Both the position numbers and the translations under genes were made by a program. Source: a virus. From it: a stretch of 64,000 bases of DNA. The notes under the pieces were generated by a model. The model saw nothing but the letters and a program-made list of their open reading frames with translations. It had not been told where the DNA came from and ran no database searches. The stretch is taken from the UHGV virus genome UHGV-1558314, one strand, 5' to 3'. This document shows positions 29,388 through 63,004 of this stretch, piece after piece (position 1 is the stretch's first letter; each line of letters starts with the position of its first letter).

Positions 29388-29618
29388 TTATTCGAAATCC
29401 GTGTCATCTGCATTTTCATTAGGGTCATAGATAAGCCATACAAATGCTGCACAGCCAAGTATGAATAAGCCTCCGCCAATGATTGTAGTGAAGATTGAGC
29501 CAATGTAGTGTTTTACAATATCGCCAAGCGGATTCAGTGTTTCGTAACCCATCATAAATGCGACAAATACAACTATTATTGCTGCTATTGCTTTGTTTGT
29601 CGTGTTTCGTTTTATCAT
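29388..29618 (-). CDS. Small membrane protein (about 76 aa)
   Basis: Two hydrophobic segments (AIAAIIVVFVAFMMGY; IIGGGLFILGCAAFVWLIY); start at ATG 29616-29618. Confidence 0.35.
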   Translation of the reverse strand: MIKRNTTNKAIAAIIVVFVAFMMGYETLNPLGDIVKHYIGSIFTTIIGGGLFILGCAAFVWLIYDPNENADDTDFE

Positions 29619-29741
29619 TATTGTAGAGGTTTTAGTGTTCTGTATATTATGTTCGAATATATGGGGGCATATATTATATATAGATATATTACAACACACA
29701 AATCATTTTTGCACACTTTTATAAACCAAAATTTCACAAAA

Positions 29742-42396: not shown

Positions 42397-42618
42397 TTAA
42401 GCTTCTTTGAAATTCAAGCAATTATTGAACCAGAGTTCTTCTGCAATCGTAAGCTCCAGTTCAGAGCAGTTATTCTTAATGAAGTCAGTCGGGTCATAAT
42501 TGAAATACACATATTCACCTGAATAGTGAAAAGGCTGTTCCATAGCAATCAATGCGAACATTAAACTGTCGATGTCCCTTTTATTGCCATATGCTACGTA
42601 AACTTTAATCTGTTTCAT
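42397..42618 (-). CDS. Hypothetical small protein (73 aa)
   Basis: ATG start verified; preceded by promoter-box variant. Confidence 0.3.
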   Translation of the reverse strand: MKQIKVYVAYGNKRDIDSLMFALIAMEQPFHYSGEYVYFNYDPTDFIKNNCSELELTIAEELWFNNCLNFKEA

Positions 42619-42636
42619 TGTTGTAGAGGTTTTATA

Positions 42637-42763: not shown

Positions 42764-43822
42764 TTACTGCTTCAAGCCTGTGAACAGTTCATACTTGAAT
42801 GCAGGCCCTGCTGTGTAAGCCTCAAAGTAGAAGTCACCAATATTGATGCTTGCAATAGCGTCATCGACAGCTTTCTTGTAGCCTACACGTTCAATTGTCT
42901 GCTTATCGCATTTACGCCAATATGTGCTGTGCATCATAAGCGTGGGTGATGCAGCATAGTCTACTGCAAGCTGTTGTTTTGCAGTGTCAATGTGATGTTC
43001 ATAGATGTGCACATCATTGCCAGTCCAAATGAACTCTCTTGCCGCACAGTTAGTCAATGTTGCAACAATATGTGTAAGCAATGCATATGATGCGATATTG
43101 ATGGGCACACCAAGACACATGTCACAACTACGCTGAGTAAGCGCACAGTCAAGCCACATGCTTGGTACTTGAGCAGAATCAAGGCATTCTGCAGAACAAT
43201 CATGCACAAGCATGCTATCATTAGCAATCTGAATTCGTTCTTCAAGAGTCATTGGCTGACAATTGAACTGAAACAGCATATGACATGGCGGCAATGCCAT
43301 CTGAGACATTTGTGCAGGATTCCATGCAGACACGACTTTGTAGCGGCCAGTTGGATTGATGACAATGTCTTTAATGCAAGTTGCAAGTTGGTCATATCCA
43401 CTGTCATTGAAGTTGCGCCACTGATACCCATAGATAGGTCCGCAATCACCATACTCAGGCTTGCTGAATTTTGTGTTATGCAGTTCTGTGCACCAAGTTT
43501 CAAAGTCGACATCTTCACCTGGATGCAGTTTACGCCAATGACGATATGCATCCTGATGCCAGAACTTTGTAATACCAAGCGTGTCAAGCGTTTTTACATT
43601 TGTATCACCTGACATAAACCACAGAAGTTCTCCAATGACACCCTTGACAAACATTCTCTTGGATGTCAACAGTGGAAAGCCTTTACGCAAATCAAATCGC
43701 ATTGATTCTACAAACAATGACTTTGTGCGAGGCATGTTTTCACGAGCAGGCTCCTTAAATCTGCCATGTTCAATAACATTGTTAAGTACTCTCAAGTACT
43801 CAGTGTCGTGTTTGATATTCAT
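42764..43822 (-). CDS. thyA: Thymidylate synthase (ThyA family, canonical dUMP-type)
   Basis: ELLWFMSGDTN, LPPCHMLFQF (catalytic Cys), GVPINIASYALL with Asn at the base-specifying position. Confidence 0.75.
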   Translation of the reverse strand: MNIKHDTEYLRVLNNVIEHGRFKEPARENMPRTKSLFVESMRFDLRKGFPLLTSKRMFVKGVIGELLWFMSGDTNVKTLDTLGITKFWHQDAYRHWRKLHPGEDVDFETWCTELHNTKFSKPEYGDCGPIYGYQWRNFNDSGYDQLATCIKDIVINPTGRYKVVSAWNPAQMSQMALPPCHMLFQFNCQPMTLEERIQIANDSMLVHDCSAECLDSAQVPSMWLDCALTQRSCDMCLGVPINIASYALLTHIVATLTNCAAREFIWTGNDVHIYEHHIDTAKQQLAVDYAASPTLMMHSTYWRKCDKQTIERVGYKKAVDDAIASINIGDFYFEAYTAGPAFKYELFTGLKQ

Positions 43823-44509: not shown

Positions 44510-46387
44510 TCAAAAGCCTGCAAAGAAATCAGCATCAGCAGCATCTTGCTGCGATGTTGACTCTTGTTCAATCACAAATCGACTGTGCAACTTTTGATTA
44601 TGTTTTATGTATGGCATAATGCGCCGGATTGATTCATCAATGACAAACGTTTCACACCAGTCATTTGCATGTCGAATGCCTCGACCAACTGACTGTACGA
44701 AGCTTTGATAGCACTTATTGCGATACCAGCTTTCGTGATTTGCAGCTTTTGTTTTGACTACGATATCACCAAGTGATTGCCAAGGTAATTTTGCAACAAT
44801 TTGACATCTACAACGATTGTCTGGTAAGTCAACGCCTTCAGTAATGCTAAAGCCTACAAGTACGTAGTTAGTGCCATCAGCAAGCATTGCAAGTTTGTTT
44901 TGTTTATCTTCAGCATTGACATATGTCAGCATTCTGCGTTTGTGCTTGCTGTTATTGATGATATAGTTTGCAATGTCTCGTGTTGATGTGTGTATGATAC
45001 AGTTGCAGTCATGCGTGTCAAGAATGCTGTCAATCTTCTCAACAAGTCGAGGCATATTTGCCGCTTTATTCTTGTAGCTCAATGACAACGCAGGCCTGCA
45101 CAGTACAATGGGGGATTTGCTAAAATCCCAATCAGGCTCCATGTAGAATGCTACATAGTTTTTGATGCCATTGAGTGCAGCAAATGTGTCGATGTCACCA
45201 ATTGTCGCTGACATCCACAATTGTGCGTGTGTAGCATCACTGTGATGCACCAGCGTATTTGCAAGAAGCTCATCATTGACACATTTGAATTGCAAGCTGT
45301 TTGTTGCAGCGTCAAGTACTACAAGCATGTCACCAGGTGATTGTTCAGTTGCATCAAGCATTGTAATGATTGAATATGACAACGTATCACAGCTGGCAAC
45401 AAAGCGAATGAACGCTTTCTCAAATTGACCAAGTATTTTACCAGAATCCTGAAGTTCACTTAGCTTGTCATATGCAGTATGCAAAAAGTCTACAAGTTCT
45501 GACAACTGCTGTGCAAGCACTCTTGCTTCTGCTCGCATTGTTGCAATGTCATATTGTGTTGTTGCAAGCTTAATGATTGCTTTGACTTGTGCAAACACAT
45601 TATTGCGAAGTTCTACATATTTATTCTGATTTTCAAGAGTCATGATACCTGCAATCAGTGACTCGGCCTTTGTGCAATTCTGAATGAATCGAGGACCAAT
45701 TGACGTGTAAAGAAAGCCTGACAAAATGTCATCAATCTTATGGCACTCATCGAATATTGTCAATTCACGAGGCCCAAATAAGTTTTTGACGCAATTGACT
45801 TGTATCAACCAGTATGCATAATTGAGCACAGTGCAATTTGCTGCTGCAGCCTTTTGACGAGTCTGCAAATATGCGCATTTAGGTCCGCATGGCAATGCAA
45901 GAGCTTTCTTTGATGACAGCCCGTCTTGCTGGCATTTGCCCATACTGAATGGCAGCCCATTGACATGACAAATGTAGTTGTCTCGACCTTTGAGCATTAC
46001 ACAACTTCTGAATGCTGAAGTAGTTGTATCTGCTTTAGCATTGTTGTCGTACAAATATTGCTGAATGAACTTGTCGTACTGGTCTTGCAGCAGTTTATCA
46101 GAAGTCAGTACATACGACTTAAAGAACGTTGCACAAAACATTGCAACCACAGATTTCCCCGTTCCAGTCGCGCCCTGCAACACAACATTTTGCCCATTTG
46201 CAATGCAACGAATGATGTCAATAATTAGTTGACGTTGAGTTGCGTCAAAACGTGCTTGGTCCCATTTGCATGTCTTTGATTGTGCAAGATATGCTGAGAA
46301 TTTGTCGATATGTGCTACAATGAGCTCATCAAGCTCTTGCTGAGACTGTTCTTCTGTCTTATGTTCTGTTGGTGTTAGTCTACCCAT
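44510..46387 (-). CDS. DinG/XPD-family Fe-S helicase
   Basis: Walker A GATGTGKS, DECH box FDECHKID, four-Cys cluster between them, C-terminal VGRGIRHANDWCETFVIDE. Confidence 0.65.
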   Translation of the reverse strand: MGRLTPTEHKTEEQSQQELDELIVAHIDKFSAYLAQSKTCKWDQARFDATQRQLIIDIIRCIANGQNVVLQGATGTGKSVVAMFCATFFKSYVLTSDKLLQDQYDKFIQQYLYDNNAKADTTTSAFRSCVMLKGRDNYICHVNGLPFSMGKCQQDGLSSKKALALPCGPKCAYLQTRQKAAAANCTVLNYAYWLIQVNCVKNLFGPRELTIFDECHKIDDILSGFLYTSIGPRFIQNCTKAESLIAGIMTLENQNKYVELRNNVFAQVKAIIKLATTQYDIATMRAEARVLAQQLSELVDFLHTAYDKLSELQDSGKILGQFEKAFIRFVASCDTLSYSIITMLDATEQSPGDMLVVLDAATNSLQFKCVNDELLANTLVHHSDATHAQLWMSATIGDIDTFAALNGIKNYVAFYMEPDWDFSKSPIVLCRPALSLSYKNKAANMPRLVEKIDSILDTHDCNCIIHTSTRDIANYIINNSKHKRRMLTYVNAEDKQNKLAMLADGTNYVLVGFSITEGVDLPDNRCRCQIVAKLPWQSLGDIVVKTKAANHESWYRNKCYQSFVQSVGRGIRHANDWCETFVIDESIRRIMPYIKHNQKLHSRFVIEQESTSQQDAADADFFAGF

Positions 46388-46388
46388 T

Positions 46389-46422
46389 CTAAATGAGATT
46401 TAGATTATGTTCGAATATATGA
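46389..46422 (-). promoter_or_regulatory. Conserved 5' leader hairpin plus shared 16-mer upstream of helicase gene
   Basis: Inverted repeat TCTAAAT-gag-ATTTAGA abuts the ATG, identical to the leader of 49413..53339; tatgttcgaatatatg also occurs at 29648-29663. Confidence 0.4.
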
Positions 46423-46631
46423 GAACATATATTATTTGTAAAGATATAATACTACAAACAGCACACATTTGCACTTTGACATAACTGATTGAGTATCAAT
46501 CAATTATGAGTTTATAAAAGTTTTTCAAAAGTAGGGTGTTGTTGTTTGAGTAGAGTGTTGTTAATGCTGTCAGCTGTCTTGTTAGCATTATCGATTGCTT
46601 GCAAACTATCAGCCGTCATAGAACATCACAA

Positions 46632-46665
46632 AAGCAAGCAGACTACAATTGCAGTCTGCTTGCTT
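46632..46665 (-). terminator. Palindromic terminator-like element, copy 1
   Basis: aagcaagcagact acaattgc agtctgcttgctt; 27/28 identical to element at 62977-63004. Confidence 0.45.
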
Positions 46666-46687
46666 TGACATATGTGTAGCATATAGC

Positions 46688-47044
46688 TTATTTGCACATA
46701 AACAATGCAGCAAACCAATTCACTGGCTTGTCAATAAGCTGCTTCCACATAGTCCAATTGTACATGCCATGTGCAAACATTGTAAGAGCAAACAGCAGCA
46801 TACACATTGATACAAGCCAATCAGCAAATGGCATATTGCCCCATCGAATGTACTCGAAAATGCCAACTTTAACAAGCTGAGCAAACAAAATGAGCATTAC
46901 AGCCATTGCAAGTCGCGTCCAGACTACATATTGCTGAGTCTTATCTACAAACTTTGCAATCAATGCTGGCACAAAGTACATAATGTATGCAAACAGCAGC
47001 AAGCAAAAGCCTGCATACAGCAGATTAGAAATAAAAGCTCCCAT
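46688..47044 (-). CDS. Multi-pass membrane protein (118 aa)
   Basis: Four hydrophobic segments. Confidence 0.4.
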   Translation of the reverse strand: MGAFISNLLYAGFCLLLFAYIMYFVPALIAKFVDKTQQYVVWTRLAMAVMLILFAQLVKVGIFEYIRWGNMPFADWLVSMCMLLFALTMFAHGMYNWTMWKQLIDKPVNWFAALFMCK

Positions 47045-47047
47045 ATT

Positions 47048-47929
47048 CTATCGTTTGAATTTGATGAAGTGTTCAGCATCGAGGCCCTCAAATACATACG
47101 GGTCAAGAGTTTCCCAGAAGTTTGAGTATGTCGTTGTCTTTGCAATGCTTGTTTGCTTTGACAAGTTCATATTTGGGTAGCCAAGCATTGCATAGTGTCG
47201 CTCATATATGTGCATTGACGTCGCATTATGCACATATGCGCCAAGCTTAAGACCAAGTTCATTTGCGACAAGTTCTTGCAACAAAGTGAATGCAAACTGG
47301 TCGTTGCAAAAGCCCCAAATGACATCATTGCTTCGCATGTATGTTGTCAAGTACAGCTTATCACCACGAACATTGAAAACAAGATTCAATGTGCATGGCA
47401 TGTCTTTGCCAGTGTAGTTTGCATATTGCGGCTCATAAATGCTAATAACTGCTCGTCTTGTGCATTCATGATTTCGCAAACGTTCAATGACATCTGCAAT
47501 CTGCTTGTGCCAAATTGCGCCATACTGTGAATTGACATTGACACCATCGTCGCTGAATTGCTTCCAACGAGGCAAATAACGTTCAATGCATTCAACTGCA
47601 GGATTGGCTGTCATGTACCACGCAAATTCTGCAGCAGCATTGAGCTTTTTCCATGGTCGTACGTCAATCTTGATTTGCCGCTGTGAAGGGTCCTGAATAA
47701 CTACAGACACATTCAGCAATTCTTTTGTTCGAGTCACTGTTTGTGCATTGTTGCCCTTTGATTCTACAAACTCACCTCTACAATGAAGTTCATACAAAAT
47801 TGAGCGAAATGCTTCTGTTGCAGTGTTTTCAATGATTGTCGTCTGTTGATAACATAAATTTGACGACAATGCTTCAGCATCATTGTACTTTATGCTGTCA
47901 TTGTCATAAGGTGAATTTTTTGTGTGCAT
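47048..47929 (-). CDS. Deoxycytidylate hydroxymethylase-like protein (ThyA-family paralog)
   Basis: RRAVISIY, PCTLNLVF (catalytic Cys), MRSNDVIWGFCNDQFAF with Asp at the base-specifying position, MHIYERH; closely resembles recalled T4 gp42 (MRSNDVVFGFRNDYAW, LHVYSRH). Confidence 0.55.
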   Translation of the reverse strand: MHTKNSPYDNDSIKYNDAEALSSNLCYQQTTIIENTATEAFRSILYELHCRGEFVESKGNNAQTVTRTKELLNVSVVIQDPSQRQIKIDVRPWKKLNAAAEFAWYMTANPAVECIERYLPRWKQFSDDGVNVNSQYGAIWHKQIADVIERLRNHECTRRAVISIYEPQYANYTGKDMPCTLNLVFNVRGDKLYLTTYMRSNDVIWGFCNDQFAFTLLQELVANELGLKLGAYVHNATSMHIYERHYAMLGYPNMNLSKQTSIAKTTTYSNFWETLDPYVFEGLDAEHFIKFKR

Positions 47930-47953
47930 ATTTTGGGATGTTTGTTTTTGTTA

Positions 47954-49048
47954 TCATACAACGACGGTATCTCGTTTGCAATCTGTTCTGTCGAATATCG
48001 AGCAACAATATGATGCAGATTGCTCTTTGATTGCAATAGCTTCGTCATTGTCAAGTGATGAAATACCATCTATGTATGCTTTTGTATTGCCAGCGATGTC
48101 ATCATTTGTTAGCAATGCTGCACGACGTTCAGTACCAAAGAAGCCAAAGCACAATTGACGCTGCAATGCTTCACGAGAAATCTTGTCATCAAACTCGGAT
48201 TTCATGTGTTGCATAAATTCGACAATATCATCAATGTCGCATTGAGTAAAGTCAATGTACAATTTATGCATGTACTTGAATCGTTTGTAGTCTGTTGCAA
48301 GAATTTCTGGGTGCACAATGAACAACGTCTTTTTGCTGTCTATTGGATTTGCAATGACTGACGCTTGAACATAATCAACAAGCACGCCAGATTCACGAAG
48401 TTGCTCAACTGTTTTGCCAAATATATGCCCAAACGTGTCATCAAACCACTTCAAGTATACTTCGTTGTCTTCATCTTTTGATGCGCCAACAATGTAAATC
48501 TCATTGACTCCAAGCGCTTTAAGACGAGTGTCAGATAGCATCGTGTTCAATTGATGCTGCACATACAGCATTGGGCTGCTATGCAAAACTGTTTTGACAA
48601 TCTCACAAGCAATGTCCATATATGCATAGTCAAGCTTTGCAGATTTTGACACATACACTGCACGTTGCTGCAATGGCTCAATTGCTGAGCATGTGGTCAC
48701 AAAGTTGCCAACACATTCTGCTACTGCAATGTCATGCAAGTCATCTGCAATGTACACAATACTTGACAAGTCATCAAATGTTTGAACAAGTTGCTGAAGC
48801 TTTGTTTTGTAATTGCAGAGCATCAATGACTTGATGTTGCAATTGCCAAGCATTGTCTTGATGAGTCGTTGACCTGCTTCAGTGCTGTCACCAGAAATGA
48901 CATGCACATCGCAGTCAAACCAGTTCAACATGTCGATTGCATGCCGAACGCCATATTGCATTTGTTTTGCGAACTTGCCAGATTCATTGAACAGCATTTC
49001 ACCTGACATAATGCCGTCAAAGTCACATACGATTTGAAGTCTGTCCAT
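47954..49048 (-). CDS. HAD-superfamily (KdsC-like) phosphatase domain protein with uncharacterised C-terminal half
   Basis: N-terminal VCDFDGIMSGE ... VHVISGDS ... IADDLHD. Confidence 0.4.
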   Translation of the reverse strand: MDRLQIVCDFDGIMSGEMLFNESGKFAKQMQYGVRHAIDMLNWFDCDVHVISGDSTEAGQRLIKTMLGNCNIKSLMLCNYKTKLQQLVQTFDDLSSIVYIADDLHDIAVAECVGNFVTTCSAIEPLQQRAVYVSKSAKLDYAYMDIACEIVKTVLHSSPMLYVQHQLNTMLSDTRLKALGVNEIYIVGASKDEDNEVYLKWFDDTFGHIFGKTVEQLRESGVLVDYVQASVIANPIDSKKTLFIVHPEILATDYKRFKYMHKLYIDFTQCDIDDIVEFMQHMKSEFDDKISREALQRQLCFGFFGTERRAALLTNDDIAGNTKAYIDGISSLDNDEAIAIKEQSASYCCSIFDRTDCKRDTVVV

Positions 49049-49052
49049 GTTG

Positions 49053-49385
49053 CTACAATTTTGAAGTTAAGTCAATTCGAATTTTGTCTGCGTTGCTTTG
49101 GTCAACAAATCTGTCATCAAAGAAACATTCAACTACGACAAGCTTCTTTGAATTCACAAATTCGATTAGCGATTTTTGCATTGCATCAAGTTGCTTCATG
49201 CATTTACAAAAGCTGCTGTATGACATGATTTGCTTTGGTAACATATCAAATGCGTCTGCAATTCGCTGATGAGCAATCTTTTTTGATGTTGCAATAATGA
49301 CATCTGCTTTGTTGTCATTTGCATGATTGCCAAATATCGCAATATGGTAAACTTTCATTGTATGAGTGATTTTGCTGTTATACAT
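49053..49385 (-). CDS. Hypothetical protein (110 aa)
   Basis: ATG start verified. Confidence 0.3.
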   Translation of the reverse strand: MYNSKITHTMKVYHIAIFGNHANDNKADVIIATSKKIAHQRIADAFDMLPKQIMSYSSFCKCMKQLDAMQKSLIEFVNSKKLVVVECFFDDRFVDQSNADKIRIDLTSKL

Positions 49386-49412
49386 TTATGTTATATATGC
49401 ACATTGTGCCAG

Positions 49413-52400
49413 TTAACAAATTGATGACGTGCCATCAGTATTTGCTACAACTGTCAATGCACTATCAAACTCATCTTGTTGCAATACATGGTCAACTATG
49501 AGTGTTTTGCGAATTGCAGAAAGCTTGGTAAGCAACTGCATCAACACTTGCTGATAATTGATATTGTTGACATCATGCTCAGCGCCAACAATCTGCCCAT
49601 TGCTAAGCTTGCCACTGATTTCGTCAATGAGCAAGATGTTGCCCACTTTGTTTAAGCGTTGAGTCAAAATGAGATGCACGATTGCAAGACCTGCGAAAGT
49701 TCCTTCCATGCCAGACATTTGACTTACACTTCGAATTGACTTCGAGCCCATCAAGTCAATCATCTTCAACACATTGTTGTCATTGATGTCAAAGAACACT
49801 CGGTAGTTCAATGAATCCAGCAAATCATTGAGCTGTGCATTCAGTGATGTTGCAATTGCTGCAAAGACATATGAAACTAAGCCTCGTTTGCTTGTGCACT
49901 GCTTATATGCATTGTACACCAAGTTTGCAATGTTCCACTTTTTCGAAGCTTGCAAATCTTTCTTGAGAGCTTCAATTCGCACATTGTTTGCTGATAAGTC
50001 TGCTTGCATTGTTGCAATTTCTGCATTGATGCTTAGCAGTTTTGAGTTCGCTTCAGTTTCATGCTGCTTAGCATCATCAATGTCGACTTGCAATGCAGCA
50101 TTTGTTGTAATATGCTGCTGAGTTTGCTGTGCATGTTCAAGTGCAAATGCTGCAGCAGTCTTATCAATCTCAAGTTGTTTAAGCGCAGACTCATATGTCG
50201 CTTTCTTATCATACTCTGCTTGAGCAATTTCAAGTTCAGCATTTATTGCAGCCAGTTCTGATTCTACTGTAGATTTTGATTGCAATACATCTTGCTTTGC
50301 TTGTTCAGCTTTACGTTTGATGTCTGCAAGTTGATTTGTGATATCTGCAATTTGCATTTTGACTGCTTCGACTTCAAGCAATGTTGCTGCAGTAGCCATT
50401 GGTTGTGCAATGAATGCATCTAAGTCTCTTTGCGCATTGACTACAGTTCTCTGCAAATCATTGAGCTTTTCTGCATGCATGTCATATGCTGCTTTGTGTG
50501 CTGGATTCAGTGCAGCAATTATTGCATTTGAATCTGTAACATCTATGATTGCTGCTTGCAGTTGCTCAATTTCATACTTCAAATTGCCAATTTTGACAAC
50601 ATTCTCATTGAATTGCTCTGTCTTTTGCGCACATTCTTGACGCAACTTAGCAAGCTCAGTTGACAACCACAGCTTGTATGCTTGTCCTGTGCCAGATGTC
50701 AAGTCATTTGTACATACAGGGCATTTGTCGTTTTCAAGTTGCTTTTGCTTGTCTATAACATTGTCGATGTTTGTTTTTGCAGCAGATATTTCTGTTCTAA
50801 GTGCATTTTGAACAGTGTTGATGTCTTCAATTTGCTTTTGCAAAGCATCTATTTTTGCCCGAGTGTTTGCATTGTACGACTTGCCAAGATTTATCAGCAC
50901 AGAATCAATGTGCTGCTTTGCTGCATCATATGCAAGCTTTGATTCATCAAGCTTTGTTCTGTACAATGACTCTGCATGCGCAACTTCTTTCTGCACTTTT
51001 GCAGATAGCTCATTCTGTTTTGTAAGCAGCTCAGCATATGTATTGTGCAGCTGTGAGCCAGATGCTATGACATTTGTGTATGCTGTATTAGCTTCATTGT
51101 CAATATTAGTGAGTTGCTGCTCAATCTGTGCTTTTGCTGTTTGCAACTTAGACATATCTTGCAATGCAAGTGCAGCAATGTCAAGCTCAACTTTGTGAAT
51201 CTTTGCAATGATGCCATCGATATTTGCTGTTGCATCTTCTATAGTTAAGATGTCTGCAGGAATTTGATGTAGTTTCTTTGAGAGCTCTTCTACTTTTGCA
51301 CGAGCTTTTGTAAGCTTCGCGGACCACTCTTTTTGATTATCTTGTCGTAACTGCAAAGAGTAATTGAGTTCATTGCAAGTTGTATTGAGAGACTCAAGTT
51401 CTGCTTTTATTGCAACATCAGTCAATGCGGGCTTACTAAGGCCATCAAACAATGCAGCCTTTGCAGCATCATTAGAATTGCCAAGCTGTACAAATGTATT
51501 GATGCCAAGAGTATCAAGTAGCCAGTCATTCAATGAATTTGAGTCCATTGCAATGATTTGGTCAAGTAGTGTCTGATTGATACAAACATATCGCGACAAT
51601 TCCCAGATAGAGCCAAAGATTGCATATAGCGTGTCTTTGATTTCATGCTGCGGCACTACGTAGTCATCTGACAATCTTACAAGCTGAACAGTCTCATTGA
51701 CTGCTGACACGTTATCTCGCCATGAGCCATCTGCATTTATTCGAGAACCTCGTTTGAATTTGCGTTCAAGTGTTCGAATCAATTTGTAGTGAACATTTTG
51801 ACCTGCTACTACATGCACAAAGACACAAGAAGCTTCAAGCTTATCATATGACTCATTGTCAATCAATTTGTCATTGAAGTATGTCAAAGCGTTCTGCTTT
51901 GTTGCTGCAGAAGACTGTTCAGCGTCAATAAAGCCAGTCAGCAGCCATTTGATAAGTCTGAAGATTGTAGTCTTGCCATTGCCATTGTTGCCTCTAACTT
52001 GTGTAAGCTGTGCAAGATTGTCAAAGCTGACATCAACATCTTTCAATGCCATGAACTGATTTGCTTTAACATTTTGAATGACATATTTTGCAACTTCAGT
52101 GTCAAAAGACAATTTATCAATTTGTTCATCAATCAATGACTTGAACATGTCAACAAACTGCTGAGCATCTTCAGTAGCAACTATGGCATTGCGTTCAATG
52201 TATGCATTGACCCAGTCAAGTGCAGCGTCTTTAAGCCATTCAGCAGTTTGAACCTTTTGCAGCAAATTGTCGCCATTTGCGTCTACAGCATTGATTGAAT
52301 CAATGACAGCAGAATCATACAGAATGTCAATTGCAGCAACAACATATGAACTTACAAGATTCTGTGCAATGCGCTCAACAATACCAGACAGTTCGGGCTT

Positions 52401-53339
52401 TGTGACCTTTGACTTGATTTTGATTTTATTGATGCGGCCAGGGTTGATGAGTGCAATCTTGTCTGTTTTGACATCATTATCAATTGTGATTGTATGATAA
52501 TGCACAAGCTGCTCAAGTGGATGCCACTCTACCACAATTCGCTTGTTGTCAATATCGATGTCAAGCAAGTTGTAGCCATGTTCTGCAGTACCATGCTGTA
52601 TTGCAGTGTCATTCAACAAATAGTCGCCTTCACCAAAATCTCTGACAATTGGCGAGCCGCAATATGTTAATGTCTTATCACCAGCAACCCATATTGCATG
52701 CTTATGAATGTCACCCATTGCAACAAAGTTGCTATTAAATTGCATTGCATCTATACGACTGTCATTGTCACCACGAACAATACAATCATCAAAGTTGACA
52801 CAATTCTTTACAGGGTCATGGAACAGCTCAATGACACACATTGATGACAATGCTGCAATCTGCGATTCATCAAGTGATGCCCAAGGCGAATATGTGCCAC
52901 CAGACCACTTCTCATTTTGAGCCCATACTGCAGCAGCAAAACCAGGTGCAAGCAGTTCAACTCTTGAACTGTTGATATACTTGATTCGCTTGTCATCAAT
53001 TGCAGTTACAAGCTTGTCAATGCTATCTGTCCACTGCATTTGTGAACCATCACCAGCATCAAATGTGTTATCACGTTGCTTCAAATCATGATTGCCAGCA
53101 GTAATGACAATTTGAAGCTTGTCATTGACTTCAAGCATGCCTTTGAGCAGCTTAACAAACAGCGACTCTTCAAGTGAATTGCTATTCCAATGCTCAAACA
53201 CGTCGCCGACAATGAATACAAACTCAACTGACTTTGCTTTGTCAATTAGTTGTTTGTTGATGTGCTCATATTCTACGAAACGTCGTAAATGACCTTGTCG
53301 AACATTATATTGAATGTCTGCTATGTGAAGTGCTTTCAT
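49413..53339 (-). CDS. Fused Mre11/SbcD-like nuclease and Rad50/SbcC-like ATPase (1308 aa)
   Basis: N-terminal phosphoesterase motifs (LHIADIQ, IVGDVFEH, TAGNHD) resemble recalled T4 gp47; then Walker A GNNGNGKTT, long coiled coil, zinc hook CPVCTNDL, C-terminal LLIDEISGKL. Confidence 0.65.
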   Translation of the reverse strand: MKALHIADIQYNVRQGHLRRFVEYEHINKQLIDKAKSVEFVFIVGDVFEHWNSNSLEESLFVKLLKGMLEVNDKLQIVITAGNHDLKQRDNTFDAGDGSQMQWTDSIDKLVTAIDDKRIKYINSSRVELLAPGFAAAVWAQNEKWSGGTYSPWASLDESQIAALSSMCVIELFHDPVKNCVNFDDCIVRGDNDSRIDAMQFNSNFVAMGDIHKHAIWVAGDKTLTYCGSPIVRDFGEGDYLLNDTAIQHGTAEHGYNLLDIDIDNKRIVVEWHPLEQLVHYHTITIDNDVKTDKIALINPGRINKIKIKSKVTKPELSGIVERIAQNLVSSYVVAAIDILYDSAVIDSINAVDANGDNLLQKVQTAEWLKDAALDWVNAYIERNAIVATEDAQQFVDMFKSLIDEQIDKLSFDTEVAKYVIQNVKANQFMALKDVDVSFDNLAQLTQVRGNNGNGKTTIFRLIKWLLTGFIDAEQSSAATKQNALTYFNDKLIDNESYDKLEASCVFVHVVAGQNVHYKLIRTLERKFKRGSRINADGSWRDNVSAVNETVQLVRLSDDYVVPQHEIKDTLYAIFGSIWELSRYVCINQTLLDQIIAMDSNSLNDWLLDTLGINTFVQLGNSNDAAKAALFDGLSKPALTDVAIKAELESLNTTCNELNYSLQLRQDNQKEWSAKLTKARAKVEELSKKLHQIPADILTIEDATANIDGIIAKIHKVELDIAALALQDMSKLQTAKAQIEQQLTNIDNEANTAYTNVIASGSQLHNTYAELLTKQNELSAKVQKEVAHAESLYRTKLDESKLAYDAAKQHIDSVLINLGKSYNANTRAKIDALQKQIEDINTVQNALRTEISAAKTNIDNVIDKQKQLENDKCPVCTNDLTSGTGQAYKLWLSTELAKLRQECAQKTEQFNENVVKIGNLKYEIEQLQAAIIDVTDSNAIIAALNPAHKAAYDMHAEKLNDLQRTVVNAQRDLDAFIAQPMATAATLLEVEAVKMQIADITNQLADIKRKAEQAKQDVLQSKSTVESELAAINAELEIAQAEYDKKATYESALKQLEIDKTAAAFALEHAQQTQQHITTNAALQVDIDDAKQHETEANSKLLSINAEIATMQADLSANNVRIEALKKDLQASKKWNIANLVYNAYKQCTSKRGLVSYVFAAIATSLNAQLNDLLDSLNYRVFFDINDNNVLKMIDLMGSKSIRSVSQMSGMEGTFAGLAIVHLILTQRLNKVGNILLIDEISGKLSNGQIVGAEHDVNNINYQQVLMQLLTKLSAIRKTLIVDHVLQQDEFDSALTVVANTDGTSSIC

Positions 53340-53341
53340 AT

Positions 53342-53383
53342 TCTAAATGAGATTTAGATTATATGTTGATATTGTACAACATG
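53342..53383 (-). promoter_or_regulatory. Promoter box plus conserved leader hairpin upstream of Mre11-Rad50 fusion gene
   Basis: Minus strand GTTGTACAATATCAACATATAATCTAAATCTCATTTAGAAT then ATG. Confidence 0.45.
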
Positions 53384-53418
53384 CAAAATGCACTTGCATT
53401 TTGATACAACGTATGTCA

Positions 53419-53766
53419 TTATTTTGCAAGCATTTTGCTGATTGCATCTATCACAGTTTCACTGAGCAAGTAGTAGACAACGCTTATCAGCAATGATATC
53501 AGTACTGCAGCTGTGATAAATTGCAACGCATTCACAATTGCACGCACAAATGTTATCTGTGTGTTGTATGCAAGCACTATGCAGCATAGCACAATAATGA
53601 CACACCAGACTACAATTGCATATGCAGGCATCAATGAATTTGTCCATATGCAGTACAATACAGTAGTTAGCATCAAAAATGCTATTGCTCTGATGACTGA
53701 CACAATGATGTCTATGTAGAGCTTCATTACACGTAAATGAACTCTTGGCTTATGCGGTTTCATCAT
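53419..53766 (-). CDS. Small multi-pass membrane protein
   Basis: Start at ATG 53764-53766 overlapping upstream stop (ATGA); three hydrophobic helices. Confidence 0.35.
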   Translation of the reverse strand: MMKPHKPRVHLRVMKLYIDIIVSVIRAIAFLMLTTVLYCIWTNSLMPAYAIVVWCVIIVLCCIVLAYNTQITFVRAIVNALQFITAAVLISLLISVVYYLLSETVIDAISKMLAK

Positions 53767-54995
53767 GACTTTATGTACAATTCTGCAAGTTGTCTGGTGT
53801 ACAATCGTGGATTGTGATATGCTTTCCAATATGCAGTAGACTTTATTGCAGCAAGAATCTCATCATAATGTTTGACTGCTTTTGCTACAACTTCATCAAG
53901 TACATGCAAATCTTCTACACTAACAAGCAGCCATTTTTCTACAATGTCAATGAATTCTTGATTGCAATTAAAGCCATATTTGTAGTTGCAAGTGTCAAGT
54001 ACAAGTGGGATGCAGTCATTTGTCAGTGCTTCAAAAAATCTACGAAGACTGAAACAATTCTCATCATATGATGGAATGCTTAATGTAAACTTGGCAGTCT
54101 TGATGAGTTGCAAATACTCTTCGTATGGAATCAGAGGACCATTGTGCTTCCACTGATTGTTATGTCGTCTTGTTGTGTACTTGAACAAAAACTTTGAACT
54201 GTCAAGCTCACAAAGATGGTCCATGCGTAAAATGTAGTTATAGCGGTCTCTTCTATCAGGCCAACTGTCAGTCATTGCAAACACAAAGTCTCTTTGCTTG
54301 TCACATTTTGCTGACATACCTCTATGCTGACACATGCAGTACCAATATTGCTGCGATGGACTGAACTCGAACTTTGAGTGATGCTCACTGCCATCTTTGC
54401 ATTGTTGAACGTAAATATTGTCAGGCACAAAGTGAAAGTAGAAATGTCGAATTTGCAAGCCGTCAATGTAGTCAAGCTTATGCTGCAATGGGTCCTCACA
54501 GAAATTGTAACACTGAATGCGTTTTGCTGCAGCATACTCAGCAACTATGAATGTGCACACCCATTGCAATGCGATGTCTTCACTCTTCAAAAAGTCAACA
54601 AGTGGCTCATTTGGATGCGCTTTGCATTCATTGAACATTTTGTACCACTTGCATTGCTCCATGTCATACTTGGAGACTGTATTGCCATTAAAAAATGACA
54701 CAGTATCAATTTTGAATGCCTCAAGTTGTTTATGCACAATGTCGATTGCTTGTGCATATGTGACAGTCTCATCAGACATTATTTGTGCAAACTTGATTGG
54801 ATGCGCATGCAAATTTGCAATTGTGTCTGCTGACATTTTGCGCTGTGTATGATAATCGACATACAAAAACTGACACTTGTCTGTAAGCAATTCAAGCATT
54901 GCTACAGATTTCCATCGAATTGCTTGAAAGAAATTGAAGTGCGCAGTTTGAAAAATGAGATGCGTAGGCTTGTCAGAATGAGTCAAAGTTTGCAT
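53763..54995 (-). CDS. Glycosyltransferase-like protein (GT-B-type C-terminal motif), paralog B'
   Basis: IPSYDENCFSLRRFFEALTNDCIPLV resembles GT-B donor-binding motif; paralogous to 58026..59582 (shared EDPLQHKL, PSQQYWY). Track start is TTG; ATG at 54993-54995 used. Confidence 0.45.
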   Translation of the reverse strand: MQTLTHSDKPTHLIFQTAHFNFFQAIRWKSVAMLELLTDKCQFLYVDYHTQRKMSADTIANLHAHPIKFAQIMSDETVTYAQAIDIVHKQLEAFKIDTVSFFNGNTVSKYDMEQCKWYKMFNECKAHPNEPLVDFLKSEDIALQWVCTFIVAEYAAAKRIQCYNFCEDPLQHKLDYIDGLQIRHFYFHFVPDNIYVQQCKDGSEHHSKFEFSPSQQYWYCMCQHRGMSAKCDKQRDFVFAMTDSWPDRRDRYNYILRMDHLCELDSSKFLFKYTTRRHNNQWKHNGPLIPYEEYLQLIKTAKFTLSIPSYDENCFSLRRFFEALTNDCIPLVLDTCNYKYGFNCNQEFIDIVEKWLLVSVEDLHVLDEVVAKAVKHYDEILAAIKSTAYWKAYHNPRLYTRQLAELYIKS

Positions 54996-56158
54996 GGACA
55001 AATGTCGCAGTTATGTTGATGTTTGTGTTTATTTATGAAGTCATATGTCACTGCAAAAAAGTGCTTTGCAATGTCATATCGAGTTTTCAAATATGCTGCT
55101 TGTCGTTCACAAAATGCTGCATAAATATCTGGGTGTTGTTTGAATGCTGCAATGCGTTGCTGTACTTGTTCTGCAGAATGCACATATGACACTTTGCTCA
55201 AATATACATCATCTGCAAATAATCGTTTGTCTTTGTCAACTGCGCAATCAACAAAAGTTGCAATTCGTGCAACAATTGCTTCACCGACACGATTTGGTAT
55301 TAGCCCATATTGCTCATATTGCTGTTCGCCGATAGCAATGTGTGCTGCTGCATATGACATTGCATATGGCACACTATAAAATGGCACACTAAAATCAAAT
55401 GAACAATTTGACTGCAGCAATTGTGTTTGTGCATCAGACAATCTACTTGTCAAGTTGCCTGTATATTTGTGCTCACCAAGAAAACTTGAGCGACAGCCTG
55501 AATCTACATAGTATCGAATGACTTTGTTTATGCGACTGTCAGATAGCATATGCCAATCTCTTGTAGCATATATCAAGTCTACTGTTTTTGCGCCAATATG
55601 ACGAGGCTCTATCGCAACATTGCTGTATGTTGGCAGCATAAACAATGGCAGCCATTTGACATTGTTGAACACTGAATGCTCATTTGACAAATTCATGCAC
55701 TGGCTAAGTTCAAGTACTGGCTCATCATACACGCCATGTAGCTCAACTCTGCCTGCATGCACAAAGTTGACACGCTTAAATGGAAATCGCATATCAGTGC
55801 AAACTGTCATTCTTGCTGCAATAGACATTCGCCACATAGCATGCAGCTTAACAACTGCTTCTGCTTGAGGTCGAGGCAACATATTTAGCAAATCAATCCA
55901 GCCGCCCCACAAAATCCAAACATCATTTGAACAGATGTTGAATTGCAAACTCAATATGTCTTCTACTGTTGTAGCAATAATGTCATGCCCATTGATGCTT
56001 GCAAGGTGTTTTCGTTGATTTGCAATAATAATGACTTGACTGAATGGAGACTCTGGAAATGACACAAGCGCTTTTGCAAACAACACGGGTTCTTGCGACA
56101 CCAAGTTGTTTGAGTATGGGTCGATTATGCAATCAAGCTTGTGTATGAAGAGTCTCAT
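54983..56158 (-). CDS. Hypothetical protein (391 aa), paralog A' of 59579..60745
   Basis: Shared N-terminus MRLFIHKLD vs MSKLFILKFD and TDMRFPF vs TDLRFDF; sits immediately upstream of a GT-like gene. Confidence 0.4.
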   Translation of the reverse strand: MRLFIHKLDCIIDPYSNNLVSQEPVLFAKALVSFPESPFSQVIIIANQRKHLASINGHDIIATTVEDILSLQFNICSNDVWILWGGWIDLLNMLPRPQAEAVVKLHAMWRMSIAARMTVCTDMRFPFKRVNFVHAGRVELHGVYDEPVLELSQCMNLSNEHSVFNNVKWLPLFMLPTYSNVAIEPRHIGAKTVDLIYATRDWHMLSDSRINKVIRYYVDSGCRSSFLGEHKYTGNLTSRLSDAQTQLLQSNCSFDFSVPFYSVPYAMSYAAAHIAIGEQQYEQYGLIPNRVGEAIVARIATFVDCAVDKDKRLFADDVYLSKVSYVHSAEQVQQRIAAFKQHPDIYAAFCERQAAYLKTRYDIAKHFFAVTYDFINKHKHQHNCDICPCKL

Positions 56159-56889: not shown

Positions 56890-57136
56890 ATAACGTTATA
56901 TCATATCTACACACAAAGCAAATGCTACTGCAAGTGCAGCCATAATTGCATATACGACTATCGATGCAGTATAATCTGATTCAGGATTCCACTTATCAGG
57001 TGTGTTAAGCTTGTGATACTTGTCTCGTCTCATCTTGAGTCAAAAAATGATGGCTGCTGCTACATTTTGTGAAATCATGTGCAGCAGCCATCTGGCAGGT
57101 TTCTTGCTTTGTAAAGCTTGGATAGAGGATGGATTT

Positions 57137-57195
57137 TATATGTTGATATTGTACAACATGCAAAATGTATTTGCATTTTGATACAACATATATTG
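57137..57195 (-). promoter_or_regulatory. Promoter box with adjacent palindrome
   Basis: tatatgttgatattgtacaacatgcaaaatgtatttgcattttgatacaac, near-identical to 53360-53410. Confidence 0.45.
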
Positions 57196-57411
57196 TCATT
57201 TTGCACAGTCTGATGCAATTAAATCTTTGTCAAAGCATTCATCTATAATGTCTTCAATAAGATACGCTTCGACATTGTTAAGCTTCAAGATATCTACGAG
57301 TTTTGCTTTGATATCGCAAGCTAATGCAGATTCGACTGTATGCAATATGACTGATGATACGACATGCTTGTCTGTCATCATTTGTAATTGCTGTGGTGTT
57401 ACTCTACTCAT
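57196..57411 (-). CDS. Small acidic hypothetical protein (71 aa)
   Basis: ATG start overlaps Tmk-like stop (ATGA). Confidence 0.3.
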   Translation of the reverse strand: MSRVTPQQLQMMTDKHVVSSVILHTVESALACDIKAKLVDILKLNNVEAYLIEDIIDECFDKDLIASDCAK

Positions 57412-58025: not shown

Positions 58026-59582
58026 TCATTGCACTTCTACGAATGGCTCTTTCAACACAAAGCTGTCACCATTGCAACATGCGGCTGAGCCATCGTCTGC
58101 ATCAAGTGCGCATGACATATCAGACTTGCAGAACTTGCAATATGAACATGACCATGCATGACTCATAAAGTTGTTTGCTTCACAAATTACACAGCGCTCA
58201 TGTGAAAGTGTATTGTCGCAATTGTCACAAGACTTCTTGATTGGCACATCTTTATTGATATATGCAAGATGCAATGCAATATCATACACAAAGTCACCCG
58301 TATATTGCTGAATGAAATCAGTGTGCCACAACTCTTTTAACAATTGTGTATGTCTATATGGCTGAACAATGTCTTCAAGATGCTGCAAGTCATCATCGCT
58401 AACCATGAGCTTCTTAATGACAAACTGTTTGAACTGCGGCCATCTGTCAAACATATAGAGTTTGCATGAGTTGTGCACAAGTGGAACACAGCCAAGCACA
58501 ATGCTTTCACAGAATCTACGCAAACTAAAACAGTTTGCATCATATGACGGCACAATCAATGTGAATCTGCTATGCTTGATGAGTTCAAGGTATGTGTCAT
58601 ATGGCAGTAGCTTGTCTGACAATGGCTGCTGTTGCTTGTCCCTGCTGAAAAATCTGAACACAATGCCTTTATCAATTGCATCTTGATTGTGCAGATGCAT
58701 GAGTTTGTTGATGAGTTCTGTGCGTTCAGTTTTGTCTCGCCAAGTATTCGTCAATGCAAATGCAAAATTCAGTCGCTTGTCATCAAACGTCGCTTCAATG
58801 TCATCCCAAGTTTTGTCATGCAAATACCAGTATTGCTGTGATGGGCACCATCCATAATATGCAATAGCGTCTTGTTCTGCTGTAACGTCATACACATATG
58901 CAGAATTGTATTCAAGGCCAAGCCCTTTGACATTGTTGCAGTCATGAAAGTACCAATGCTGCACTTTGAATATCTTTGATGCACTGAATGCGCTTTCATA
59001 TGGCCCTGAATAGCGATAGTCAATGTAATTGAGCTTGTGCTGCAATGGGTCTTCGACAAAGTTGTTTATGACTGTGCCTTGTTGTTTGCCATTAGTCTTG
59101 CGAGCATTCAATGCAATATTGTACTGCATAATGACTGACAGCATCTCATACACTACATACATGAGTGCTTTGTAGACTGAGCCTGCTGCGTCAATTAGCG
59201 GCAAATCACGTTTGACTGATGCAGTACCAAATGTCTTGCAATATGCAGAAAATGTATCAAGTTCTGCCTGTTGAAATGAATTGCATGCGCCATTGAATAT
59301 GTTGAATGTTGCAATGTAGCTCATATTACAAGATGTCATTGACATATCAAGACGCTTCATAATGTCAGCAATGCGACATTGAGCAAAATCTGACACATCA
59401 ACATATTTGACATGATGACCTGATGCAGTCAAGCCAACTGCGACTTCTTTCATTTGTGGCACAAAGCCTACTACAATGAACAAGTCATCTTTGTTTGCTC
59501 GTTCAAACATTGCTGCACTTTTCCAAGTCAATGAATTGAAAAAGTCTATGTAGCCAGTCTGTGTGATGATATGTGTTCTCAT
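58026..59582 (-). CDS. Glycosyltransferase-like protein (GT-B-type C-terminal motif), paralog B
   Basis: VPSYDANCFSLRRFCESIVLGCVPLV; C-terminal Cys-rich extension (CDNCDN...CVICE...CSYCKFC). Confidence 0.45.
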   Translation of the reverse strand: MRTHIITQTGYIDFFNSLTWKSAAMFERANKDDLFIVVGFVPQMKEVAVGLTASGHHVKYVDVSDFAQCRIADIMKRLDMSMTSCNMSYIATFNIFNGACNSFQQAELDTFSAYCKTFGTASVKRDLPLIDAAGSVYKALMYVVYEMLSVIMQYNIALNARKTNGKQQGTVINNFVEDPLQHKLNYIDYRYSGPYESAFSASKIFKVQHWYFHDCNNVKGLGLEYNSAYVYDVTAEQDAIAYYGWCPSQQYWYLHDKTWDDIEATFDDKRLNFAFALTNTWRDKTERTELINKLMHLHNQDAIDKGIVFRFFSRDKQQQPLSDKLLPYDTYLELIKHSRFTLIVPSYDANCFSLRRFCESIVLGCVPLVHNSCKLYMFDRWPQFKQFVIKKLMVSDDDLQHLEDIVQPYRHTQLLKELWHTDFIQQYTGDFVYDIALHLAYINKDVPIKKSCDNCDNTLSHERCVICEANNFMSHAWSCSYCKFCKSDMSCALDADDGSAACCNGDSFVLKEPFVEVQ

Positions 59583-60745
59583 GATTTGAATGTTTGTTCA
59601 AGAATTGTGTAACACTGCACAATCATTACTGCAAGAGCTTTTTGCTGTGCTTGTTTGCAATCATCAAAATTTGTGGGCGCAGTGCGTACGCGTGTTTTGC
59701 TATTAAGTGTCGCAAATGTCGCGTAGTCATCGAAGCCTATAATGTCAGCAAATAGGGCAATTGGCTTATAATCTACAAGTATGTTGCAGCAATTTGCAAG
59801 TACGCCTTCAACCCATCGATTTGGCAGCAAGTCTGCTTGCACATACAATGAATCACCAACTACAAGATTGTATGCCGACTGTGACATTACACGCGGCATT
59901 GCATCGTATGTGACTTTGTATTTAAGTGTAAAGTTTGGTGCTGCTGATTTAATCGCAGACAAAATTGTGTCATCAAGATATGATGTTATGAGACACGTGT
60001 CGCACATATGTATGACAAATTGTTCAATCACACTTCTACGATACTCGTCAAGATATGTGAAACCTGCACAACTTGCACAGCATGCATATTGCTGCTTTAT
60101 GTCAGCAAAGCTACGCACATGAGCTTCAATTGCATTTTGCATCGTTACTTGTAGTTTAAGCAATCTTGGCTCTTTAATGTATTGAAGCTTCAATGCATTG
60201 ACTGCTGCAATGATTTGCAATGGGGCAAACACACATTGAGACTCATCAAGCCAAGCGTATTTGAGATTTTTGTGCTGGCATAGATGCGTAATGTTGTCTT
60301 TTTGTGATTCTAAGTACTCTTTGTAATTGTGCAATCGCTTTGTCAATGTGCATTCTTTATCAAAGTCGAATCGCAAATCAGTTGTTAGTGTAAATTTGCG
60401 AGCGTTTGACAAACACCATGTTTTGAATGCATTCCACAGAACATCTTGCTGAAATTCTGAGCAATGTTCAAGAGCAGCCTTTGAACCTTGCCAGAATATT
60501 GCGCAATCATCTGATTTTGCGCACTTCAGCATATCTTGCCATGCATGTATGTTATTGATAATATGCACATTATCATACACAAGCTCATCAAGTATTGCAT
60601 GCTTGTTCTCAGGGTCGCCAAACACATATACAGCATCAAACATTGTCTGCACAAAACCTGCAAATGCAATAGGTTCTGTATGCTTAAGATGCTGTACGTC
60701 TGAACGCACGCATGTGTCAAATTTCAAAATGAATAGTTTGCTCAT
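59579..60745 (-). CDS. Hypothetical protein (388 aa), paralog A
   Basis: ATGA overlap with downstream GT-like gene; paralogous to 54983..56158. Confidence 0.4.
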   Translation of the reverse strand: MSKLFILKFDTCVRSDVQHLKHTEPIAFAGFVQTMFDAVYVFGDPENKHAILDELVYDNVHIINNIHAWQDMLKCAKSDDCAIFWQGSKAALEHCSEFQQDVLWNAFKTWCLSNARKFTLTTDLRFDFDKECTLTKRLHNYKEYLESQKDNITHLCQHKNLKYAWLDESQCVFAPLQIIAAVNALKLQYIKEPRLLKLQVTMQNAIEAHVRSFADIKQQYACCASCAGFTYLDEYRRSVIEQFVIHMCDTCLITSYLDDTILSAIKSAAPNFTLKYKVTYDAMPRVMSQSAYNLVVGDSLYVQADLLPNRWVEGVLANCCNILVDYKPIALFADIIGFDDYATFATLNSKTRVRTAPTNFDDCKQAQQKALAVMIVQCYTILEQTFKS

Positions 60746-62976: not shown

Positions 62977-63004
62977 CAAGCAGACTGCAATTGCAGTCTG
63001 CTTG
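62977..63004 (-). terminator. Palindromic terminator-like element, copy 2
   Basis: Perfect 28-bp palindrome caagcagactgcaa|ttgcagtctgcttg downstream of 63052..63597. Confidence 0.45.

Follow-up and report, generated by a model that had tools for sequence, protein, structure and literature searches.

In bacteriophage T4 the operator of gp43 is a hairpin of 16-18 nt, and the sites of the RegA repressor are unstructured, include the AUG together with a 5' A tract, and are carried by ~30 mRNAs (PMC3014915). A different type of element is known from Bacteroidota, where CTAA-N5-TTAG is the experimentally defined SOS box of a non-canonical LexA and controls recA, recN, ruvB, recQ and similar genes (PMC8565304). 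The regulators of this box are related to phage CI repressors and are absent from Bacteroidales, the main gut order, and changes in the spacer length abolish binding (PMC8565304). Here we describe a short hairpin, H2, that adjoins the start codons of two DNA repair genes, encoding an XPD/DinG-like helicase and an Mre11-Rad50 fusion protein, in the virus genome UHGV-1558314. The window that we analyzed is a stretch of 64,000 nt (64 kb) of this phage genome of ~175 kb (175,395 bp, ~40% G+C). The repeat that contains H2 is a real, non-random and species-specific leader element, and it is part of an unusually plastic system of promoter-leader cassettes.

The 21-mer AATCTAAATCTCATTTAGAAT occurs as two exact copies in the window, both on the minus strand (46386-46406 and 53340-53360), and a search allowing up to three mismatches returned the same two copies, with none expected from 100 shuffles. 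The element is thus confined to the two start codons rather than scattered over many unrelated positions, and the original prediction of a ~21-nt leader common to both genes is borne out by an exact repeat whose identity extends to 23 nt, ATAATCTAAATCTCATTTAGAAT. This 23-mer is the sixth-longest same-strand exact repeat in the window, and all of the longer ones are copies of a promoter block described below. The core of the 21-mer is the perfect inverted repeat that had been predicted, TCTAAAT/ATTTAGA, with CTC as its loop (TCTAAAT-CTC-ATTTAGA, a 7-bp stem and a 3-nt loop), and this core is H2. The two copies, their genes and the terminator that separates the operons are as follows.

46388..46404, minus strand: H2 hairpin, helicase copy, with its 3' end at -1 of the helicase ATG (46387); shared 23-mer at 46386-46408.
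53342..53358, minus strand: H2 hairpin, Mre11-Rad50 copy, ending at -3 of the ATG (53339); shared 23-mer at 53340-53362.
44510..46387, minus strand: XPD/DinG-like DNA helicase gene, 625 aa (Helicase_C_2, DEAD_2, phrog_2488), the first gene past the terminator at 46630-46666.
49413..53339, minus strand: Mre11 (Metallophos)-Rad50/SbcC (AAA_23) fusion gene, 1308 aa (phrog_35725, full length).
46630..46666, minus strand: intrinsic-terminator-like hairpin (AAAGCAAGCAGACT..AGTCTGCTTGCTTTT) that ends the Mre11-Rad50 operon, upstream of the helicase promoter.

The position of the start codon relative to the repeat differs between the two genes. The 21-mer is followed directly by ATG at Mre11-Rad50, as predicted (..TTTAGAAT ATG), but at the helicase (..TTTAGA ATG G) the ATG shares the last two bases of the 21-mer. 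Homologues support both start codons; for the helicase, the "MG" start shows no variation in the homologue alignment. Within 2 nt of a start codon, the window has no perfect short hairpins other than the two H2 copies, each of which stands before the first gene of an operon.

Both genes are preceded by a member of one promoter family, a (G/T)TGCAAA-N11-TGTWGTAYAAT block, usually followed by ATCAACATATAAT, that is found at a dozen or more minus-strand intergenic sites preceding DNA-metabolism genes.

62887, 60786, 57158, 53381, 46474, 42677, 29714, 27817, 25722, 22971, 20712 and 16311/16278, minus strand: promoter-family sites (depending on the search, the position is the start of the 24-mer, the start of GTGCAA or a core-word match).
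53358..53399, minus strand: promoter block P before Mre11-Rad50, ATGCAAG-N11-TGTTGTACAATATCAACATATAAT, with the canonical 24-mer at 53358-53381 and a degenerate tandem copy reaching ~53428.
46431..46474, minus strand: promoter block P' before the helicase, GTGCAAA-N11-TGTAGTATTATATCTTTACAAATAAT, of the same family with a 3' part 2 nt longer.

The claim that the upstream promoters differ is correct in so far as their sequences and 3' lengths are not identical, but both belong to the single family GTGCAAA-N11-TGTWGTAYAAT. The family is kept in relatives down to 34% protein identity and the spacing within the block is constant throughout, while the distance to the final TAAT ranges from 24 to 29 nt and this TAAT is absent in some copies. 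Because the upstream spacing is fixed while the TAAT distance varies, we read TAYAAT as the probable -10 element, with a putative transcription start ~7 nt downstream. With such a start, H2 would lie in the transcript, and H1 (a second hairpin module, see below) and H2 would begin at about +5. The family is a poor fit both to the sigma-70 consensus and to the Bacteroidota TTTG/TAnnTTTG consensus. A reading of the block as a plus-strand promoter of that Bacteroidota type was rejected, since its TA is not conserved, and the location of all copies 5-30 nt upstream of minus-strand start codons also counts against it.

The first T of the Mre11-Rad50 H2 is the last T of a TATAAT in the promoter block, and more generally TATAAT or CATAAT precedes every H2, its last T being the first base of the 5' arm. 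It is because this hexamer runs into the 5' arm that the identity between the leaders is 23 nt and not 17. The overlap would suit a temporal switch of the T4 gene e type, in which long transcripts with the whole hairpin are poorly translated and a second promoter, using the -10-like (T/C)ATAAT, makes well-translated transcripts that lack the 5' arm, a mechanism documented for T4 lysozyme and its relatives (PMC3014915). A weak Sigma70_r2 match in the open reading frame (ORF) at 15733-16359 (E 0.0076, under the curated cut-off) also points in this direction. However, neither a T4-type TATAAATA motif nor another recognizable late-promoter consensus is present upstream of the structural genes, the CATAAT in the tail of H1 has no promoter block upstream of it, and recombination genes are not expected to be late; we therefore consider such a switch very unlikely.

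The interval between the terminator and the helicase promoter holds further features. Six nucleotides upstream of the GTGCAAA of that promoter is a palindrome with a 12-bp stem, ATAATTGATTGA-TAC-TCAATCAGTTAT (46481-46507, minus strand); in strain L017 its loop is inverted (GTA) and a T-to-C change perfects the stem. A possible 35-aa gene (MTADSLQAIDNANKTADSINNTLLKQQHPTFEKLL; 46512-46619, minus strand) lies between terminator and promoter, and 5 of its 7 substitutions relative to L017 are synonymous. The terminator hairpin itself (AAGCAGACTGCAATTGTAGTCTGCTT, 46630-46666) has a near copy at ~63.0 kb (62977-63004, minus strand), and a 15-nt piece of it is found inside the ORF upstream of Mre11-Rad50 (53606-53620, minus strand).

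No window gene is preceded by a Shine-Dalgarno sequence, and the leaders are A-rich. The nearest cultured relatives of the Mre11-Rad50 fusion protein are in Chryseobacterium and Tenacibaculum jumbo phages (~26% identity). Judged by its sequence, then, the phage has Bacteroidota-type translation signals and Bacteroidota-phage relatives. Against this background the two leaders are outliers: among 41 genes, the pairing predicted for -20..-1 places them 1st (0.74) and 3rd (0.67), with the values of most other genes falling between 0.2 and 0.5. The isolated 21-mer folds with a z of -5.2. Part of what had been proposed about these leaders is therefore confirmed: a hairpin is predicted for both, and the region just upstream of the start codon is predicted to be unusually paired. 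The idea that the initiation region is sequestered was overstated, as the AUG lies outside the core stem. A marginal outer helix (AUAU/AUAUG; -4.1 kcal/mol) includes the AUG at Mre11-Rad50 only. A scan of the whole window with Rfam at gathering thresholds returned no family.

The comparison of related contigs shows that the leaders are modular. We define P as the promoter block, H1 as ATATGTTCTCATATATT(T)CGAACATAAT with the hairpin AATATATG-TTCT-CATATATT, and H2 as CTAAATCTCATTTAGA. Four strain haplotypes can be distinguished: A (the window with L026 and L027), B (L017/L005/L007/L008), C (L022/L023) and D (L024/L025/L020). Strain B and the window share 95.1% DNA identity over 21.4 kb, and the proteins of the strains are 97-98% identical. 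Members of the protein clusters P0062 and P0076 are carried by 35-38 strain contigs, several of them 175-181 kb long. The H1 modules of the window and the leader layouts are listed here.

46404..46430, minus strand: H1 module ATATGTTCTCATATATTCGAACATAAT, between P' and H2, with its hairpin at 46414-46433, flanked by ATAAT direct repeats.
29646..29672, minus strand: third H1 module (ATATGCCCCCATATATTCGAACATAAT), with its hairpin at 29656-29675, after a promoter at 29673-29714 and upstream of the gene for a 76-aa two-TM protein (ATG 29618).
Mre11-Rad50 leader, strain A (window): P-H2-AT-ATG.
Mre11-Rad50 leader, strains B and C: P-H1-H2-AT-ATG.
Mre11-Rad50 leader, strain D: P-H2'-H1-H2''-AT-ATG.
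Helicase leader, strains A, B and D: P'-H1-H2-ATG.
Helicase leader, strain C: P'-H2-ATG.

In strain D a new copy, H2' (CTAAATTTCATTTAGATTCGATTTAAT), stands beside the promoter with a perfect 9-bp stem and the loop TTC, and the ATG-proximal copy, H2'' (TTAAGTCTCATTTAGAAT; TTTAAGT-CTC-ATTTAGA), has two changes in its 5' arm. These substitutions (C to U and A to G) both keep the pairing as G.U, and do so on the sense RNA only. A copy of H2, or a remnant of one, adjoins the ATG of both genes in all four haplotypes and is intact in 5 of the 6 gene/layout combinations, the Mre11-Rad50 leader of strain D having the sole decayed ATG-proximal copy. The distance from H2 to the promoter, on the other hand, shifts by 27-28 nt or more between strains. 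H1 (27-28 nt) is present or absent independently at the two genes, exactly between ATAAT direct repeats. Comparing the third H1 with the helicase H1, 3 of the 4 loop bases differ (TTCT vs CCCC) and none of the 28 other positions does, a distribution with P ~8e-4 if three differences fell at random among the 32 positions, as calculated from the sequences. H1 and H2' are perfect hairpins unrelated in sequence that occupy the same place after P, carry the same tail (TTCGA-N3-TAAT), and both have the AAT of the promoter TAAT at the base of the stem. The occurrence of unrelated hairpins in one position with a common tail would fit the recognition of a structure and not of one DNA sequence. As a separate matter, H1 could encode a 7-codon upstream ORF (MFSYIRT* / MPPYIRT*) with its stop just 5' of H2. 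A second leader module, TAAAACCTCTACAAYAATG, is present at 29616-29634 and 42616-42634 (minus strand), at the same offset in small genes of 76 aa and 73 aa that are unrelated to each other.

One alternative is that the repeat has no dedicated function. It may have arisen as a side effect when homologous promoter-leader cassettes recombined and underwent hairpin-stimulated slippage, one gene having recently passed its copy to the other, with gene conversion preserving the identity. Such an origin would agree with the promoter-block nature of all longer exact repeats, with the insertion and loss of H1 between ATAAT repeats at both genes, and with leader pieces such as TAAAACCTCTACAA that are common to unrelated genes at fixed offsets from the ATG. 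The promoter regions are also visibly mosaic: the Mre11-Rad50 promoter of the window resembles the copy at 57136-57205 (90% over 70 nt), and strain B is laid out differently. Tandem repeats in the helicase leaders of distant relatives, and the lack of H2 in those relatives, can be added to this side. The arguments for function are the low variability of the leader, the restriction of differences between H1 copies to the loop, and the retention of an intact H2 in every layout observed, with both window copies ending within 2 nt of a start codon. Gene conversion could mimic the first of these. On balance, a functionless by-product appears unlikely to us.

The regular placement of a perfect hairpin (H1 or H2/H2') ~5 nt from the putative 5' end, in all layouts and at the third site (29656-29675), could also point to a 5'-terminal stem-loop acting on the whole operon, as an mRNA stabilizer against 5'-end-dependent decay or as a nut/put-like loading site for an antitermination factor. 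Each H2 stands ahead of the first gene of its operon, and the constant 3' tail TTCGA-N3-TAAT on H1 and H2' is arranged like a boxA/boxB pair. Yet a hairpin of this sort is missing from most members of the promoter family, the protection given by stems of -3 to -4 kcal/mol behind ~four unpaired 5' nucleotides would be poor, and neither an antiterminator nor matching internal terminators were identified, so that we regard an operon-level role of this kind as quite unlikely.

Within the species, the helicase leader comprising H1 and H2 has no variable column (0/48) among four strains, against 26/253 in the remaining intergenic region (P ~0.005), although for the reason given above this conservation is not by itself decisive. 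In more distant relatives the pattern is different. The contigs L021/L009 have 63% (helicase) and 51% (fusion) protein identity, and L010 and L013-L016 have 34-47%; H2 is absent from all of these, so H2 is young and confined to one species. Scans of metagenomes and IMG/VR with the helicase alignment gave only two distant relatives and the one close relative. Distant relatives carry tandem 13-nt repeats in the helicase leader (TACTATTATCATA; four copies in L016, 1-106; L013, ~16780-16830), and throughout the family indels seem to concentrate in the transcribed region just past the promoter.

In a 174.6-kb contig of a relative, the 17-mer of H2 has exact copies at these two genes and nowhere else. 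In IMG/VR it gave, apart from a near-identical phage, five matches, none of which has a following start codon or the promoter block; from their sequence context these five look like chance matches. Across 596 Gb of bacterial and archaeal genomes there were 58 matches, where a rough expectation under uniform base composition is ~70, and most were coding, such as the conserved ..GALVSKSHLEKV.. stretch in Flavobacteriaceae. We rejected the 17-mer as a host regulatory motif on account of this near-chance frequency in mostly coding DNA. A longer palindrome, CCAATCTAAATCTCATTTAGATTGG, occurs in G+C-rich contigs (Eisenbacteria metagenome-assembled genomes (MAGs) L076 and L085, and an unclassified bacterial MAG, L068, at 981-1005 and 1822-1846) and is apparently a repeated element of another kind that contains the 17-mer by coincidence.

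The perfect 17-bp palindrome could also be bound as double-stranded DNA by a dimeric helix-turn-helix (HTH) repressor, CI- or LexA-like and of phage or host origin, that blocks RNA polymerase just downstream of the promoter and co-regulates the two recombination operons. The half-site centers are 10 bp apart, which suits a dimer on one face of the helix, and H2 can be written as CTAA-N7-TTAG (T-CTAA-ATCTCAT-TTAG-A), with the same dyads as the SOS box of Bacteroidota. An intact H2 is always found at ~+5 to +50 of the promoter. The CTAA dyad is lost (TTAA) from the ATG-proximal copy of strain D, in which a new perfect copy stands immediately next to the promoter, and across copies the loop or spacer bases vary while the arms are constant. 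However, the spacer is N7 and not N5, CTAA-N5-TTAG is absent from the window and from six related loci, and no CTAA-N7-TTAG was seen near promoters in distant relatives. The promoter distance varies by 27-28 bp between strains, the unrelated palindrome H1 in the same place would require a second protein, a Pfam scan of 50 window ORFs detected neither an HTH nor an S24 protein, and the 17-mer is at chance level across prokaryotic genomes. We think a DNA operator unlikely, and the canonical Bacteroidota SOS box was rejected (a 7-nt spacer vs 5, and no N5 sites in the phage).

The reading that we favor, tentatively, is that H2 may be a cis-acting RNA leader element, specific to this species, that lowers or coordinates translation initiation. 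H2 would be the start-codon-proximal module of a modular promoter-leader cassette in one phage species. With transcription beginning ~7 nt past TAYAAT, it would be transcribed, and the RNA would form an AU-rich 7-bp/3-nt hairpin across -17..-1 (helicase) or -19..-3 (Mre11-Rad50), covering the stretch that the ribosome needs single-stranded when Shine-Dalgarno pairing is absent. From a hairpin over the landing stretch we infer a lower and similarly set initiation of the first genes of both operons, two consecutive operons of DNA metabolism. H2 may also be a candidate site for the binding of some factor. In favor of function in general are the low variability, the loop-only differences and the retained intact copy. 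In favor of RNA over double-stranded DNA are the ATG-adjacent place of H2 in all layouts despite the promoter shifts, the two unrelated palindromes with the same position and tail, the sense-strand wobble changes, and the unusual degree of structure where translation depends on open leaders.

Several observations weigh against this RNA leader reading. The relatives at or below 63% protein identity keep the gene order and the promoter block without H2, and have neither another leader common to both genes nor a start-codon hairpin; co-regulation is therefore not an old trait. The isolated H2 folds weakly (-3.1 kcal/mol) with a core stem that excludes the AUG, and in contexts of 49-55 nt the total fold is no better than that of shuffles (z -0.4). 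In strain D the stem of H2'' drops to -0.5 kcal/mol, and the full leader predicts pairing with the H2' tail instead, so that what all haplotypes share is an intact H2 in some part of the leader, which need not be next to the AUG. The known H2 sequences number only three, with no compensatory double substitution among them. Were the downstream TATAAT the -10 element in place of our putative one, the 5' arm of H2 would be untranscribed in the P-H2 layout. The scan of the 50 window ORFs gave no candidate for an RNA-binding regulator and no RegA, HTH or S24 domain. The shared translational control proposed in the original prediction is thus supported in part, by a structured, low-variability, ATG-adjacent cis-element, and is weakened by its lack of conservation at or below 63% protein identity.

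A broader and more speculative version, which we regard as rather improbable, is that H1 and H2 belong to a family of ~27-nt hairpin cassettes (with a TAAT end and the constant tail TTCGA-N3-TAAT) between promoter and start codon. These would be gained, lost, duplicated and exchanged between genes within the species, and in phages of Bacteroidota that lack Shine-Dalgarno sequences they would rewire how recombination genes are controlled, whether post-transcriptionally or in an SOS-like manner (CTAA-N7-TTAG). If true, phages of this kind would have a layer of regulation that has not been described for them. Gene regulation has been little explored in phages of hosts without Shine-Dalgarno pairing, and a functional H2 would be a natural case of structure-based translation control, or of an SOS-like operator, in that setting. 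The natural strain variants (with and without H1, with a duplicated H2 and with a decayed H2) form a ready allelic series. If functionless, the repeat would be an example of promoter-leader cassette recombination inside a phage species. The scope is one uncultured phage species, and the general impact is accordingly modest.

The rest of the window is consistent with a large phage genome that has no close relative in GenBank, as a megablast search with 12 kb against GenBank phages gave no match; one related contig, L015, is labelled human gut metagenome. Nearly all genes are on a single strand, and they encode a portal, a prohead protease, baseplate proteins, a split family-A DNA polymerase, two thymidylate-synthase homologues, GT47-like glycosyltransferases, dCMP deaminase, dUTPase and MazG. 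Individual genes of note are the following.

1612-5562, minus strand: ORF of 1316 aa whose first ~240 residues match prohead protease families (phrog_207), an unusually long protease fusion.
24184-25689 and 19370-20662, minus strand: the two genes of the family-A DNA polymerase, with ~3.5 kb between them that holds a homing-endonuclease-like ORF (22976-24175), dUTPase, MazG and other genes.
42764-43822, 47048-47929, 53763-54995, 54983-56158, 58026-59582 and 60717-61442, minus strand: the two thymidylate-synthase homologues, several GT47-like/beta-glucosyltransferase-like proteins and dCMP deaminase.
15733-16359, minus strand: the ORF with the weak Sigma70_r2 match, which may encode a gp55-like sigma factor; its 5' extension contains tandem promoter blocks, and the true start is thus probably the ATG at 16233.

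The thymidylate-synthase, glycosyltransferase-like and deaminase genes suggest, by their predicted products, a hypermodified DNA with glycosylated hydroxymethyl-pyrimidine.

Among elements of known type, an intrinsic terminator was rejected for H2, whose stem has one G-C pair and is not followed by a T run, the true terminators of the window having stems of 10-21 bp. Hairpin promoters of the N4 type have a 5-7-bp stem, a 3-nt loop and a start ~11 nt from the loop center, and are used together with a giant virion RNA polymerase (vRNAP) gene. The stem and loop sizes of H2 fit. This type was also rejected, however, because a start 11 nt downstream, which at Mre11-Rad50 coincides with the A of the ATG, would fall inside the ATG at the helicase, on its G, and because the window has no vRNAP-like gene. 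The nut boxB of phage lambda is similar to H2 in that the same ~15-nt hairpin occurs twice per phage genome, each time downstream of an early promoter. Unlike boxB, H2 adjoins the start codon, and neither an N-like protein, a boxA nor downstream terminators to override were identified.

The RegA-like repressor site that had been offered as an example of the possible control did not survive the comparison. H2 is A+U-rich and lies at or immediately 5' of the AUG, as RegA operators do, and the targets of RegA are early and middle genes of DNA metabolism. Unlike those unstructured operators, H2 is a perfect hairpin with the AUG outside its core, and it is present on two mRNAs and not ~30; two copies were found in the window as well as in the 174.6-kb contig of the relative, and a RegA-like site is not supported. 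The RegA domain (Pfam family PF01818) was found in none of the 50 window ORFs scanned.

The leaders of T4 gene e, soc and I-TevI resemble those described here in having a structure over the ribosome landing zone and a -10-like hexamer overlapping the 5' strand, but H2 is much weaker, its second promoter is hypothetical, and its genes are of the replication and recombination class. With the SOS box of Bacteroidota, H2 shares identical CTAA/TTAG dyads, a promoter-proximal location, DNA repair and recombination genes as the presumed targets, and a Bacteroidota-associated genome. The hairpin operators of phages (T4 gp43, and the coat-protein operators of MS2 and Qbeta) differ in several respects: H2 is all A-U but for one pair, folds at -3.1 kcal/mol, stands on two unrelated genes in one species, and no cognate binding protein was identified. 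The covariation expected of this class is likewise not seen, as the changes are of the wobble type only and near-identical H2 is found only in strains 95-98% identical. What H2 has in common with these operators is its small size and its place at the initiation site, or just 5' of it, in front of a gene for replication or recombination.

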